The notes under the pieces were generated by a model, which was not told the DNA's origin, searched no databases, and saw only the letters and a list, made by a program, of their open reading frames with translations. 64,000 nucleotides of DNA from Parcubacteria group bacterium Gr01-1014_8 (GTDB lineage Bacteria > Patescibacteriota > Minisyncoccia > Phycocordibacterales > UBA2100): positions 64,001 through 128,000 of the forward strand of contig VMGC01000003.1 in the NCBI GenBank assembly GCA_007376385.1, given 5' to 3'. The translations under genes were made by a program, and so were the position numbers. This document shows positions 50,127-58,924 of this stretch, piece after piece. Every line of letters starts with the position of its first letter. The stretch's first letter is position 1.

Positions 50127-50453
50127 TTATTTTCCCCCGCTGCCTCCGCTTCCTCCGGCACAGCCATCACAACAATCACCTGCGCCAGCGTCACCTGCAT
50201 CACCTGCATCACCTGCGCAGCCTCCACACCCACCGTCGCTGCAACCATCCGACGTGCAACTCGAACAACTCGAACAACTGCCCGGGGCATCGGCGCGCGC
50301 CACATCAGAATTTCCTAAAACTCGCTCGCCGCCTCCCCCTCCAAATACGCGCGGCGCAATGACAGTAAGAAGCACGATGACAGCACCGAGGAACAGTAAC
50401 CCCGCATTCCGGATCGCCTTATATCCTCGCTGGGAGATGCGTACAATAGCCAT
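50127..50453 (-). CDS. candidate RiPP precursor: TM/leader region plus Gly/Ser/Cys-rich core (microcin-B17-like composition)
   Basis: C-terminus GSCSSCSSCTSDGCSDGGCGGCAGDAGDAGDAGAGDCCDGCAGGSGGSGGK. A TGaTATACT extended -10 sits 6 nt upstream of the ATG (leaderless-like). 9-nt tandem repeats occur in the core coding region. Confidence 0.45.
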   Translation of the reverse strand: MAIVRISQRGYKAIRNAGLLFLGAVIVLLTVIAPRVFGGGGGERVLGNSDVARADAPGSCSSCSSCTSDGCSDGGCGGCAGDAGDAGDAGAGDCCDGCAGGSGGSGGK

Positions 50454-50527
50454 AGCGAAAGTATATCAGTACACAGCACAATATCCGCGCCTTATGTGGA
50501 TATGTACTTCCACCCTATCTCGCCCTG

Positions 50528-51721
50528 CTATTTTTGTATCCAATCATTGGTTTGAAAGATCGAAAAATCCAAAGCGCATACATTCGCTGTCTCGATAACC
50601 CGATGCAGAGGCTCGTGCGCAAACGATAGATCGAGCGACCAGAAGATTTCCCGTATGGGCGGCTCGCCCCGGCACAGCGCTTTGAGTTCGAACCAGCGTG
50701 TATACGGGCTACAGCGACAAGGACGATTTTGCCATGCACCTTTTATAACCTTCTCGGTCCCGTCCTCGTACCGTACCGTCGCAAGCGATACGCCGCTCGT
50801 GGCCGGAAAGTAAGTCGCAATGCCGAGATGAGGCCTCGCAAATGTAAAACTTCGGCTATGGAGCGCAAAGATGATCCATGCGTGCATCATCAATAGACCT
50901 AGACAGATGATGGCCATGCGCCATATGTAGGTGCCACTGGGTTTTTTTGCAGGCACGTCGAACCAAAAAAGCGCGGGCAAGATCGGCACGATAAGCAACA
51001 TGTAGTATTGTTCAAAGACAACGCCTGCATACACATGGAACGCTACAAAGACGCTCAGTACGCCTCTGCGATACCGCGCGTCTTTAGAAAGGAGGTACCA
51101 CACGCCGATCCACTGCAGAGCAAACGCTCCATGTACGAACCATAATTCGACGCCTGCAGGAATGAGCGGCATATCCTTCGGCAGGCCATCCAAGATATAC
51201 GCGCGATAAAATTCTGTGACACCGCCAAGTACATACAGAAAGACAACAAGAGCACGCGCTGTCCATTCCTTGCATGCGGCAAATAACAGCACCGCTGACA
51301 GCAGGAGGTGCAGGTATGAGTACGCTTCGCCGGCTTCATATGAGAGAACGAGGAGAAAAAAAGCTTCCCACAACCAAGTCAGAAGAAAGATGCCGTGTGC
51401 CGCGAGCCATCGACCCCTGATCGCCGCAAATAAAGCAACCGTTTGCAGAATGAACAGGAAGCCATACAGCGCCGTCTGCGAATAACCGTATTGTTTTAAA
51501 TTTAGGAAATACCATTCACCGCATTGCTGAAAAAACGGCCAGCATGTATACACGTTGCTTTGGTATGCCTGAACGGTGCCCGCATCATCGCCGACAAACG
51601 TTGCGAAGAGGAACATCTGATACGCGAGCGCAATGAAAAATAAGATGCGCGCGTTTTCGGAAGGCAAAAATTCGCTCAAAGAGAAAAACTTCTGGTAGGA
51701 ATCACGGAGGCGCTCCAACAT
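50528..51721 (-). CDS. polytopic membrane protein (possibly HTTM/SdpB-like)
   Basis: About 8 TM helices with no soluble domain. The family assignment is tentative. Confidence 0.35.
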   Translation of the reverse strand: MLERLRDSYQKFFSLSEFLPSENARILFFIALAYQMFLFATFVGDDAGTVQAYQSNVYTCWPFFQQCGEWYFLNLKQYGYSQTALYGFLFILQTVALFAAIRGRWLAAHGIFLLTWLWEAFFLLVLSYEAGEAYSYLHLLLSAVLLFAACKEWTARALVVFLYVLGGVTEFYRAYILDGLPKDMPLIPAGVELWFVHGAFALQWIGVWYLLSKDARYRRGVLSVFVAFHVYAGVVFEQYYMLLIVPILPALFWFDVPAKKPSGTYIWRMAIICLGLLMMHAWIIFALHSRSFTFARPHLGIATYFPATSGVSLATVRYEDGTEKVIKGAWQNRPCRCSPYTRWFELKALCRGEPPIREIFWSLDLSFAHEPLHRVIETANVCALDFSIFQTNDWIQK

Positions 51722-51788
51722 GCATGAACTATATCATGCAGTATCTTTTGCAGATGAAAAAAAGGATGTACCATTCTGTTGTACATTC

Positions 51789-56180: not shown

Positions 56181-57458
56181 TCAAACGAGTGTCTCATCAA
56201 CAACGATCTGGCATTTTCCACGCGCTGTCGGCGGAATGTTCGCGACGAGTATTATTTTGACCGCAATAGAATTCCCAACTAACTCGCGAACGTTTGATTC
56301 GATTCTCTGTGTTGCATTGCCATCGAACAGAGCGCCCGGAACTATTCTCAATTCAAGTGCACCCTCGGCCGTTTTTGCGAACTGGTATTGGAACACGAGG
56401 TCCATGAACATATCCAGCGCTGCATCGAACTCCAGATGATGTATATCCCGCCCGCCGAAATTCAAGAACGCTGAATATCTTCCCTCGAACCATATTCTCG
56501 GAGTTTCAAGGCCGCATGTGCACCCCTCTAACGATATGACTCCGTGATCGCCTGTGTCATACCGAATGAACGGCATGTTGTAGTTCGTCAGGTCTGTCAG
56601 AATTACCCTTCCCCACTGCCCCGGGGGAAGTACTCTTCCTTCTTCGTCCACTATTTCCGCAATGATCGATTCGCTGTGCAGGTGCTGTCCATCGTGATAT
56701 GTGCATTCGCATGCCACAGCGGACATCTCTTCGATGCCGTACCGGTCATACACTTCGCTTTGCATTGCGGTTTCCAAAAATCCGCGCAGCGCGGGGGGAA
56801 GCATTTCGCCGAACGACACAATATATTTCGGCCGTATGCGGGGCAGAGAGAGGTCAGAGGACAATTTTTGCGCCAAAATAAACAGGATCGAAGTGTAACT
56901 CTCCAATACTTCCGGCTTGAATGACGCAAGCTTTCGTATCGCGTCTTCAGGATCGGACAAGAACTGTTTGACCGGCATAAAAAAACGGTAGCGCGAGGAG
57001 TTCGAACGTATCTTGATGCGGGCGACGCGAAGTTTTGAGAAGTCGAACATAAAAGCATGTTGCCAGGAAATGAATCTGAAACAGACCGATTCCAGATATC
57101 GCATATCAGTTGAATTGCGCCCGAATAAGAACGTGAACGGCTTCCCGCTCGTGCCCGACGTGTTATACCACCGTGAAAATATCTGCTGGCTGTTGTCGAT
57201 GAGCTCCTCACGCGGACGATCCAAAAAAGTTTCTTTTCGGGTTATCGGAAGCGAGGAGAGACCTTCCAAAGTGCGTATCTTTTCCGGCTCAATACCAGAA
57301 AGAGCATACAACTTTTTATACAAAGGTACGTTCGCCGCCGCATGCATGATGATCATCCGCAATCTTTTCTCCTGCCATCTTTGTATGGCCGAACGGGACC
57401 GACGATGCAAGAGATGAAAACGGAGATATTCGATGCTCTCGCGTATCTCATTGATCAT
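56181..57458 (-). CDS. PaaK/CapK/F390-synthetase-like adenylate-forming enzyme 1
   Basis: YNTSGTSGKPFTF (P-loop-like) and RYDTGD motifs of the phenylacetate-CoA ligase family. Confidence 0.7.
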   Translation of the reverse strand: MINEIRESIEYLRFHLLHRRSRSAIQRWQEKRLRMIIMHAAANVPLYKKLYALSGIEPEKIRTLEGLSSLPITRKETFLDRPREELIDNSQQIFSRWYNTSGTSGKPFTFLFGRNSTDMRYLESVCFRFISWQHAFMFDFSKLRVARIKIRSNSSRYRFFMPVKQFLSDPEDAIRKLASFKPEVLESYTSILFILAQKLSSDLSLPRIRPKYIVSFGEMLPPALRGFLETAMQSEVYDRYGIEEMSAVACECTYHDGQHLHSESIIAEIVDEEGRVLPPGQWGRVILTDLTNYNMPFIRYDTGDHGVISLEGCTCGLETPRIWFEGRYSAFLNFGGRDIHHLEFDAALDMFMDLVFQYQFAKTAEGALELRIVPGALFDGNATQRIESNVRELVGNSIAVKIILVANIPPTARGKCQIVVDETLV

Positions 57459-58663
57459 GTGATGTGCTTCGCCCGCTTCAGCGGGATGAATTTTATCGCC
57501 TTGCCGTTGGGTCCCTCCGGAATGTGTTCCACCACTTCCCAGGAAACTGCAGCGAGAGGGTGCAAGATGCTCTCAAGATTCATAGCCAGCTCTTCTTTGT
57601 AATTCTCAAAATAGGGACCAGGAATGACTTTGATGGTGAACGCAAAAGGCCCGGTCTGTACTATCTGAAATTGGTGCACCACTTTCGTATAGCGATCAAA
57701 TATCTGGGAAAAATCTAGCGATGATACCGTCCTTCCGTCCTCGAATCTCAAGAGTTCAATTTGGCGCCCTAGGATGCGTATTGTCCGCAGTGTCCGGCCG
57801 CATGAACAAGGCTCTTCGGAAATGACGCCCCTGTCGCCGGTATCGTAGCGAACGAACGGCATGACGCGATTATCGAATGTCGTAACGACTACTTTGCCCT
57901 CCTTACCATACGCGAGAGGTTGGCCCGTATCGTCAGTTATCTCGACATATGCCCATTCCTCGTTGATATGTAGGCGGTGCTGCTCGCATTCAAAAGCAAG
58001 CCATCCCAACTCACGGGTCGAATACGACAAAAAAACCTTGAGGCCAAAGGCTTGATTGATCAGTGCACGCCCTTGTTCAGGCAACGCTTCTCCGCCGGCT
58101 ACGAGGCCCCGGAGGGACAACGATATCCTGCGTTCATTCACGACACGCGCCAGTTCTATGAGGGAAGAGGTGAAACCGAACATCACGACTCCTCGGCCGA
58201 AGGAATTCAGGAAATCGCGGAGTTCTTCGACTCGATAACGTACGGCATTATACCCGCGTGAAAAAAAGACCCGCCCGCGCGGTATCGTCACCCCCATGCG
58301 CTCACTGACCCTCATCGACACCACCGGATACGACACGCCACCGGCCGCTGTCCGGAACATGCGGGCACATATCGCATACGAGCGCAATTCATGATGAGCA
58401 TCCAAATAAAAACAAAATGGCGTGCCTGTGGAGCCCGAGGTAAAATCGCGCGACCATTCATCATCACGATCGCCGTCTGTATAGAGAGTTTCAGAGACCC
58501 CGGTGAAATCTTTTTTTGATACGATAGAGATCCGAGAGAAAGGTCCATGTTCCAGCGACGACAGATCCATGGAGTGAACTAGTATCTTTTCTCTCCAGAA
58601 CGCAAATCTCTGCGTCGAACAGAGAAGCGCGGCAAGCCTCTTTTTCTGATATTCGATCATTCG
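57455..58663 (-). CDS. PaaK/CapK/F390-synthetase-like adenylate-forming enzyme 2
   Basis: FTSGSTGTPFCF and RYDTGD motifs. Its stop overlaps the start of enzyme 1 by 4 nt. Confidence 0.7.
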   Translation of the reverse strand, partial: RMIEYQKKRLAALLCSTQRFAFWREKILVHSMDLSSLEHGPFSRISIVSKKDFTGVSETLYTDGDRDDEWSRDFTSGSTGTPFCFYLDAHHELRSYAICARMFRTAAGGVSYPVVSMRVSERMGVTIPRGRVFFSRGYNAVRYRVEELRDFLNSFGRGVVMFGFTSSLIELARVVNERRISLSLRGLVAGGEALPEQGRALINQAFGLKVFLSYSTRELGWLAFECEQHRLHINEEWAYVEITDDTGQPLAYGKEGKVVVTTFDNRVMPFVRYDTGDRGVISEEPCSCGRTLRTIRILGRQIELLRFEDGRTVSSLDFSQIFDRYTKVVHQFQIVQTGPFAFTIKVIPGPYFENYKEELAMNLESILHPLAAVSWEVVEHIPEGPNGKAIKFIPLKRAKHIT

Positions 58664-58924
58664 CCTGCGCGGCCAATATTGGCTTTTTCCGAGCGCCCAG
58701 ATGTCAAATCGCAAAGGAATATACCGAACGGGACGGCACCAATATACGAGAACATTTGTCCATATTCTGTCGCTCCGCCACCACTTCTTCAAAAGCGTAA
58801 TGTACGCGAACATAACCCTCAAACTCTATCAAATGCGCGAGGATCAGAAAGTAACATGTATCCCCAAAAAGATATCAGATATCCCGTTCGCGACAGGTCG
58901 TCGCTATTCGAATATCATTTCTCT

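Follow-up and report, generated by a model that had tools for sequence, protein, structure and literature searches.

A YcaO–SagB gene cluster of Parcubacteria with a predicted lineage-specific azole-peptide pathway

The gene cluster described here lies in a stretch of 64,000 nucleotides (the window) from Parcubacteria group bacterium Gr01-1014_8 and encodes a YcaO protein, a SagB-type FMN dehydrogenase, a small Gly/Ser/Cys-rich peptide, a phosphoribosyltransferase (PRTase)/β-propeller fusion, and a number of membrane-associated and accessory proteins. All genes listed in a preliminary description of the window, made from the sequence alone, were recovered as intact open reading frames (ORFs) at the positions used below. 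The YcaO protein is 100% identical to NCBI entry G01um10148_723, and an identical copy has been independently assembled from another sample. The system is larger than first drawn: it reaches leftwards to at least position 48116, as two always-linked products, a protein of about 380 amino acids (aa) and a tetratricopeptide repeat (TPR) protein, lie outside the bounds of 50127–58822 originally given.

The cluster has an uncommon genomic setting. The genes rplC and rpsJ are normally neighbors in the S10 operon, and the window departs from that arrangement (45708–63263), with a block of about 16.5 kb separating rplC (45708–46316, −) from rpsJ (62868–63263, −). The order L2-L23-L4-L3, cluster, S10 recurs in L002, the P0220 contig, L083, and some 10 other loci. 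Between the block and rplC are a strong terminator-like hairpin (46475–46491, −) and a promoter-like site (46580–46608, −).

The YcaO and SagB enzymes

The YcaO protein (53475–54902, +; 475 aa) is a predicted ATP-dependent cyclodehydratase of the stand-alone type. It matches PF02624 over nearly the whole profile (E 3e-44, positions 6–324 of 325), and the residues E114/E117/R118 and E234/E237/R238, which make up two ExxER groups, are invariant among 30 homologs; the ATP-binding motifs reported in the preliminary description are thereby confirmed. Its best NCBIfam family is SagD (TIGR03604, E 6e-55), with a score of 186.6 bits against a cut-off of 219.25 that marks it as a divergent branch. Since SagD is the best family and the S12-accessory model for Escherichia coli-type YcaO proteins is unmatched in the NCBIfam scan, a housekeeping enzyme of the E. 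coli type, which the preliminary description had named as a finding that would undo its proposal, was rejected. An AlphaFold model of high confidence (pLDDT 92.9) has LynD (4v1v, E 3e-21) and MusD (7u58) as its best fold matches in the PDB. The closest of these, LynD, is a cyanobactin heterocyclase that forms azolines. At the C-terminus, all 30 homologs end in P[HQ]P[FY]-x, and 28 of the 30 in PHPF-x, so that only the PxP part is present of PxPxP, a C-terminal motif linked to YcaO proteins that form azolines (PMC12338566). The relatives outside the candidate phyla radiation (CPR) end in PxPHPxP or PxPHPxA.

SagB (54905–55633, +; 242 aa) begins 2 nt past the YcaO stop codon and is predicted to oxidize azolines to azoles. 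The preliminary description was right about its identity and signature and put the spacing at 3 nt. The protein contains RPYPSGGALFPIEIY and scores 123.7 bits with TIGR03605, above the cut-off of 78.4. Three motifs, R-YPSGG..P.E.Y, W.R...KY (with its Lys-Tyr pair), and LLEAGH, are kept in at least 90% of 27 orthologs. These family assignments support the classification of the locus as a YcaO + SagB system of the thiazole/oxazole-modified microcin (TOMM), or linear-azole, type.

A different amide activation by YcaO, directed at the peptide or at another protein, has to be weighed against this assignment. It would comprise thioamidation, amidine or macrolactamidine formation, or MusD-like cleavage, with the nitroreductase-fold protein serving as something other than an azoline oxidase. 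Such chemistry would fit the stand-alone state of the YcaO, which is shared with the thioamide-forming archaeal and bottromycin enzymes, as well as the incomplete PxPxP motif, the second-best family match (McrA-glycine thioamidation YcaO, E 9e-22), and the best PDB sequence match, which is the YcaO peptidase MusD. It is nevertheless improbable, as SagD and LynD remain the best family and fold, the YcaO has a dehydrogenase of the SagB family, its Lys-Tyr motif conserved, as a fixed neighbor, the substrate is rich in Cys and Ser as in microcin B17, and Pfam and NCBIfam scans found neither TfuA nor a sulfur-carrier gene in the cluster.

The candidate precursor and the conserved module

The 108-aa Gly/Ser/Cys peptide encoded at 50127–50453 (−) is likely the precursor. 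Its leader (residues 1–54, 50292–50453) consists of a basic N-terminus and a 17-aa hydrophobic helix and ends in VARA|DAP. The core (residues 55–108, 50130–50291) begins with GSCSSCSSCTSDGCSDGGCGGC, continues with a GDA repeat, and contains 18 Gly, 9 Cys, 9 Ser, and 8 Asp/Glu residues, with a net charge of −7. Sequence upstream of YcaO is available for 34 related loci, and 32 of them show the same architecture; the gene there adjoins YcaO or its module and usually sits directly upstream of YcaO on the opposite strand. This distribution, together with a conserved leader and a hypervariable core, bears out the choice of this peptide, with its microcin-B17-like core, as precursor candidate in the preliminary description.

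Family leaders are 46–61 aa long and can be aligned between loci. They have a basic N-terminus (often MVAIQK-like), a hydrophobic helix of 17–20 residues ending in P-R/K, a linker of 10–25 residues, and an x-A-H-A-D-A-P motif. The cores, on the other hand, are hypervariable in both length (23–98 aa) and sequence. They are composed of 29% Gly, 17% Ser, 16% Cys, 12% Asp, and 10% Ala, are nearly devoid of Lys and Arg, and carry net charges of −1 to −17. No Pfam or NCBIfam family matches these small ORFs, which on their sequences constitute a new, previously unnamed family of putative precursors.

The motif at the end of the leader fits the −3/−1 rule of signal peptidase I. Position −1 is Ala, position −3 is Ala, Val, or Thr, and position +1 is Asp or Glu in all 33 sequences compared, counts that are partly circular because the sequences were selected with a regular expression requiring A[DE]. 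Position −2 is His in 26 of the 33, with six different residues in all. Because the hydrophobic helix is preceded by more positive residues than follow it (3.3 versus 1.4), an N-in/C-out orientation is predicted.

Two further members of the family differ from this scheme. An atypical precursor in L005 (1–600, −) has a Cys-rich core followed by another domain, which spans 85 aa or more and runs off the end of the contig. L008 has a second precursor (18031–18276, −), with a Gly/Thr/Ser core that lacks Cys, beside a divergent second YcaO/SagB pair.

Related loci were collected by a profile scan of species-representative genomes, supplemented with six loci from protein look-ups, and their content was compared by tblastn and blastp. 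The scan returned 33 Patescibacteria loci in which YcaO is 35–46% identical to that of the window; one more locus labelled Patescibacteria (L037) and those of other phyla drop to values of no more than 30%. Relatives with 36–53% identical YcaO proteins have the gene set as well, so the grouping is not due to chance. This survey thus upholds the link between the genes that the preliminary description had drawn, with a shared module in about 36 Patescibacteria loci.

The module shared by these loci encodes, on one strand, a peptide of 75–160 aa, the membrane-anchored helical protein of about 380 aa, and the TPR protein, and on the opposite strand YcaO followed by SagB. In almost every related locus SagB is found right beside YcaO. 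The arm formed by the small ORF and the 380-aa and TPR genes adjoins YcaO or the module, and a gene for a secreted protein with a shared C-terminus often comes next. Whole modules (precursor, 380-aa protein, YcaO, and SagB, with or without the PRTase/propeller fusion) are duplicated in L025, L026, and L027. HTTM-like proteins and PaaK-like ligases, on the other hand, are limited to subsets of the loci, and the L013 cluster additionally carries a RimK-like ATP-grasp enzyme. A fixed core accompanied by variable, putative tailoring genes is the pattern seen in clusters for peptides that are made ribosomally and modified post-translationally (RiPPs).

One locus also harbors a fusion that involves a YcaO domain. 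In L018, a 1074-aa protein (6667–9891, −) joins AMMECR1 to a SagD-like YcaO domain; its gene is the direct upstream neighbor of one for a precursor of 158 aa that contains 22 Cys, and an ordinary YcaO/SagB pair stands on the far side.

It is very improbable that the Cys-rich protein is no substrate at all and instead acts as a membrane-anchored metal or redox protein, with YcaO and SagB working elsewhere, for instance on a ribosomal protein. This view draws on the position of the cluster between rpsJ and rplC, on the link of E. coli YcaO to ribosomal protein modification (PMC7550191), and on a CxxC spacing that is typical of metal sites. Against it, the peptide gene adjoins, moves with, or is duplicated with YcaO in 32 of 34 loci, some of them away from ribosomal genes, RiPP precursors typically combine a conserved leader with a hypervariable core in this way, and the YcaO is of the SagD type and leaves the S12-accessory model unmatched.

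The 380-aa protein (48979–50121, −) has a short, basic N-terminus, one transmembrane helix, and a helical domain. Its gene starts 5 nt past the precursor stop codon, and the two genes adjoin in 24 instances, duplicated modules included. The protein matches no Pfam or NCBIfam family, gives only weak TPR-like matches in a PDB profile search, and has no conserved catalytic-type residues. The charges flanking the helix suggest a type II signal-anchor protein with N-in/C-out orientation. A role as cytoplasmic partner is unlikely, considering that the basic N-terminus and transmembrane helix would place the bulk of the protein outside and that conserved catalytic-type residues are missing.

The TPR protein (48116–48982, −; 288 aa) is recognized by TPR family matches and is membrane-anchored. 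Its gene overlaps that of the 380-aa protein by 4 nt, and 30 instances of a homolog, with strand and side unchanged, were counted across the related loci. The common neighbor beyond it (47112–48134, −) encodes a secreted, Cys-containing protein of 340 aa whose C-terminal ~135 aa recur, in the same position, on surface proteins of 230–940 aa. The counterparts in L082 and L083 carry fn3/CARDB/VWA domains.

These partners bear on the possibility that the product, made by the same enzymes from the same substrate, is a constitutive envelope component instead of a secreted antibiotic. An azole-rich polyanionic peptide, anchored or held by the TPR, 380-aa, and adhesin-like proteins, would then serve in metal binding, surface charge, or host attachment of these host-dependent bacteria. 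The cluster is widespread in the clade and repeatedly placed between rplC and rpsJ, beside core genes. Its always-linked partners are membrane-anchored and devoid of conserved catalytic-type residues, its neighbors encode large fn3/CARDB/VWA surface proteins, and its cores are polyanionic with CxxC-like spacing. In addition, Pfam and NCBIfam scans of the cluster proteins recognized neither an ABC exporter nor a leader protease nor an immunity gene. Hypervariable cores and duplicated modules are, however, more typical of conflict or antibiotic peptides. Simple vertical inheritance of a housekeeping trait is likewise unsupported, as pairwise YcaO identity is uncorrelated with L3 identity (Spearman rho = −0.01 for 55 pairs from 11 genomes), in a comparison weakened by narrow identity ranges and by paralogs. 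An envelope component is hence a serious possibility, though an unlikely one.

Leader recognition and accessory proteins

The locus departs from its nearest non-CPR relatives with regard to the E1-like partner. All of the nearest non-CPR YcaO relatives are accompanied by an E1-like C protein with a TIGR03882 "TOMM precursor leader peptide-binding" domain. This protein is 310–396 aa long, ends at the YcaO start or is fused to YcaO, and has a Cys-rich precursor upstream. A hidden Markov model built from 28 such C proteins found no match at E ≤ 10 among ORFs of at least 60 aa in the 64-kb window and 37 CPR loci, in agreement with the preliminary description, which saw no E1-like partner. TIGR03603, TIGR03882, and TIGR03693 are unmatched among 14 cluster proteins scanned with NCBIfam, the same proteins having also been scanned with Pfam. 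In the YcaO model, the first 50 residues form a strand, two helices, and a strand, as opposed to the three-strand, three-helix arrangement of a RiPP recognition element (RRE). A hidden E1-like or RRE partner is thus unsupported by the family scans, the C-protein model, and the predicted N-terminus of YcaO alike. Because the non-CPR relatives carry a C protein and the CPR loci have no detectable one, the CPR clade reads, on sequence comparison, as a branch of an otherwise canonical TOMM lineage from which the C protein has been lost.

The gene directly upstream of YcaO (51720–53429, +) encodes a fusion of an orotate phosphoribosyltransferase (OPRT)-like domain (~51789–52364) with a PQQ/BamB-like β-propeller (~52383–53414), as the preliminary description had recognized. 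The gene caller sets the start at Met24, and the protein lacks a signal peptide. The propeller is assigned by PF13570/PF13360. The PRTase domain matches TIGR00336 (E 3.6e-15) with 56.1 bits, below the PyrE equivalog cut-off of 106.8, and aligns to the OPRT structures 2yzk and 2wns across the catalytic loop (VRKSRKKYG..EG) and the phosphoribosyl pyrophosphate (PRPP) loop (VIFVDDLINTGQS). Both loops are kept in 21 orthologs, in keeping with a type I PRTase fold.

The fusion occurs at 21 of the 36 related loci, usually directly after SagB, and is duplicated along with the module. It is about 50% identical over the clade and thus better conserved than YcaO. Three of three further homologs, picked solely for their long contigs, directly follow a YcaO–nitroreductase pair with the same divergent small-ORF/380-aa/TPR arm, and among the cases examined the fusion occurs only in this cluster context. 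Its genes are currently annotated as "quinoprotein alcohol dehydrogenase" or "BamB". Devoid of a signal peptide, with its PRPP loop and its catalytic loop both intact, and tightly linked to the system, the fusion is the best candidate for a substitute substrate-handling partner or a PRPP-dependent tailoring enzyme, an assignment that is the weakest link of the proposed pathway.

An accessory polytopic membrane protein of 397 aa (50528–51721, −) with a Cys-containing C-terminal domain has no Pfam, NCBIfam, or PDB-profile match, and PF05090 is unmatched at E ≤ 1 in 9 family members, one of which shows a weak match to the carboxylase lumenal domain (E 0.16). Its AlphaFold model (pLDDT 74) nevertheless retrieves human GGCX, the vitamin-K γ-carboxylase, at ranks 1–8 of the Foldseek search of the PDB (E 3.6e-6 to 9e-5, TMq 0.54–0.62), the next match having an E value of 0.38. 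The protein is thus predicted to be HTTM-like at the fold level only. The HTTM-like label of the preliminary description holds for the fold; Pfam detects no HTTM domain, and the protein is an accessory of a subset of loci. K151, H229, Y231, and Cys pairs are invariant in the family, whose members occur in about one-third of the loci, often between SagB and the PRTase/propeller gene. CPR bacteria are generally regarded as being without quinones.

In L082 (1703–4112), an HTTM+DCC1-like fusion of 585 aa that is positive in Pfam and a 192-aa protein of the Asp/Arg β-hydroxylase family are encoded between the TPR gene and a 380-aa-like gene and beside an Asp/Ser/Cys-rich precursor. In animals, both a carboxylase and an Asp hydroxylase act on the vitamin-K-dependent clotting factors. 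SdpB, an HTTM-domain protein, matures the Sec-exported SdpC peptide of Bacillus subtilis and may be a further analog of the 397-aa protein.

Two PaaK/CapK/F390-synthetase-like adenylate-forming enzymes are encoded in tandem. The first (56181–57458, −; 425 aa) has a TSGTSGKP motif and matches NF045666 (E 4e-43) below the cut-off, and the second (57455–58822, −; ~452 aa) has a TSGSTGTP motif and sub-cut-off NCBIfam matches. The PaaK model TIGR02155, which has a cut-off of 646 bits, gives the first a score of 100 and the second one of 41, well under the equivalog level, and the best NCBIfam match of the ligases is the DVU_1553-family ligase (147.6 versus a cut-off of 300). The pair is found only in close relatives of the window and in L009, L013, and L016, both members being present wherever either is, and its genes come straight after SagB, as part of one operon, in L013 and L016. 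Both enzymes named in the preliminary description are thus present as linked neighbors, with the status of accessories in a subset of loci.

The other Cys-rich peptide that the preliminary description had included, a product of 66 aa (55731–55931, −), is probably unrelated to the system. This basic product carries a signal peptide of the ordinary kind and 8 Cys in the motif DYNSC...CRNC...YC, and its ORF has its own promoter-like site (56057–56085, −; 11 of 12 positions matched). The ORF is absent from the gene calls of the public assembly. No tblastn match was found in the related loci, and Cys-rich counterparts with a signal peptide occur in the same position only in the closest relatives (L003 and, more loosely, L001). 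These features leave a second precursor unsupported, and the peptide is probably not a YcaO substrate.

Further genes stand between the ligases and rpsJ. A Cys-rich, membrane-anchored protein of ~420 aa that belongs to no recognized family is encoded at 58679–60121 (+), and homologs of its Cys-rich domain recur close to the cluster in L002, L027, and L032. The same domain makes up the C-terminal third of the product of 60031–62820 (+), the N-terminal part of which resembles Lnt, the apolipoprotein N-acyltransferase (TIGR00546, E 1.5e-25, below the cut-off). Elsewhere in the window are a tRNA-Ile with anticodon UAU (3182–3256, −) and an ordinary tmRNA gene (10160–10550, +) with the tag peptide ANKTARGVLSPIQAKDLGLVFA. 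In most bacteria AUA is read by a lysidine-modified CAU tRNA, and the UAU anticodon may reflect an unusual AUA decoding strategy in this genome.

Proposed pathway and comparison with known systems

Taken together, the locus probably represents a lineage-specific variant of the linear azol(in)e-containing peptide (LAP)/TOMM pathway that is conserved across Parcubacteria/Paceibacteria. From the gene content, family assignments, conserved motifs, synteny, and precursor architecture established here, we infer every chemical step, export, cleavage, and the role of each accessory protein as follows. The stand-alone YcaO would use ATP in the cytoplasm to cyclodehydrate core Cys, and probably Ser, residues of the 108-aa precursor (50127–50453) to azolines, which the adjacent SagB flavoprotein would oxidize to thiazoles and oxazoles. 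The leader would be recognized by YcaO itself or by the cytoplasmic PRTase/propeller protein in place of an E1-like/RRE partner, and this is the weakest step. The leader, which resembles a Sec-type signal anchor, may carry the modified core to the outer face of the membrane, where the invariant Ala in xAHA|D would probably mark the cleavage site of signal peptidase I. Outside, the product would encounter the 380-aa and TPR proteins, which are encoded alongside it and anchored in the membrane. In some lineages it may be further tailored by the HTTM/carboxylase-like enzyme, the PaaK-like ligases, the Asp/Arg hydroxylase, or the ATP-grasp enzyme.

Several observations weigh against this pathway. 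Azoline-forming YcaO proteins normally need an RRE-bearing partner, and the searches of the window and of the 37 loci yielded none. The YcaO stays below the NCBIfam SagD cut-off (186.6 versus 219 bits), and its C-terminus, PHPF-x, is short of the full PxPxP. On the side of the substrate, a strongly hydrophobic signal-anchor leader would favor membrane targeting ahead of cytoplasmic modification, and the ~10–25 aa that separate the AxA site from the hydrophobic helix make a long stretch by the standards of signal peptidase I substrates. The partial circularity of the cleavage-motif counts belongs here as well. Lastly, some cores are poor in Cys, with none in L008b, one in L030, and two each in L028 and L034.

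A bolder version of the pathway is doubtful and is offered tentatively. In it, the substrate would be signal-anchored, polyanionic, and directed to the cell surface, and a partner-free YcaO would rely on the PRTase/propeller protein for substrate handling, possibly with addition of a PRPP-derived group. Finishing steps would take place outside the cytoplasm and include the vitamin-K-carboxylase-like protein. A large share of Parcubacteria would have such a system, and the product would serve these episymbionts in the envelope or in host interaction and would not be a classical bacteriocin.

Should the inferred chemistry be right, the locus represents a large natural family of azole-forming YcaO proteins that dispense with the leader-binding partner believed to be necessary for making poly-azoles, and it offers a new answer to the question of YcaO substrate recognition. 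It would also assign a function to Parcubacteria genes now called "hypothetical", namely those for the precursor family and the 380-aa, TPR, and PRTase/propeller proteins. A modified, exported, polyanionic peptide encoded beside ribosomal protein genes in very small genomes could inform how these cells build their surface and deal with hosts or competitors. The precursor motif (hydrophobic helix, xAHA|DAP, and Gly/Ser/Cys/Asp core) is a search handle that is absent from current RiPP miners.

YcaO/nitroreductase clusters are already known from CPR bacteria. LAP clusters were detected with antiSMASH in 93 CPR genomes, 51 of them Parcubacteria, with a nitroreductase beside YcaO in 89 clusters (Sharrar et al. 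2020, mBio, PMC7298704). The preliminary description was therefore wrong in calling the system undescribed and in stating that Patescibacteria are not known to produce RiPPs. As in the window, these clusters have a YcaO with an adjacent nitroreductase and a putative precursor beside YcaO, and the window locus almost certainly belongs to the set. Apart from one Microgenomates example with a peptidase, they are reported as counts in the sections consulted. Those sections do not mention a precursor family, a missing C protein, a PRTase/propeller or HTTM-like protein, ligases, or a placement between rpsJ and rplC. In the literature searched, likewise, no description was found of the precursor family, C-protein loss, PRTase/propeller, carboxylase-like protein, 380-aa/TPR partners, or rpsJ-rplC position.

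Among known enzymes, the 397-aa protein resembles the vitamin-K γ-carboxylase in its predicted fold, and like that enzyme it would meet, on the outer (lumenal) face of the membrane, a substrate that is acidic and has a leader. It differs from γ-carboxylase and HTTM proteins in having no Pfam HTTM or NCBIfam match and in being confined to a subset of loci. The YcaO proteins of bottromycin biosynthesis and archaeal McrA thioamidation are also stand-alone, of similar size, and of the same YcaO fold. These enzymes, however, form a single azoline, amidine, or thioamide and have no SagB, in contrast to the window system, with its many Cys/Ser residues and a SagB fixed beside YcaO.

The closest parallels are the pathways of microcin B17 (McbBCD), streptolysin S (SagBCD), and phazolicin, which also combine a YcaO with a SagB/McbC-type FMN dehydrogenase and an adjoining small precursor gene. 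LAP/TOMM pathways have an E1-like/RRE partner (McbB/SagC), whereas none was found at the window locus, nor was an ABC exporter, protease, or immunity gene recognized there. Their leader is cytoplasmic and removed by a dedicated protease, unlike the Sec signal-anchor-like leader of the window precursor with its AxA site. In composition, the window precursor comes close to that of microcin B17, both having a conserved leader and a Gly/Ser/Cys-rich core. What sets the window system apart from these LAP/TOMM pathways is a strongly acidic core and a new set of partners, the 380-aa, TPR, and PRTase/propeller proteins.

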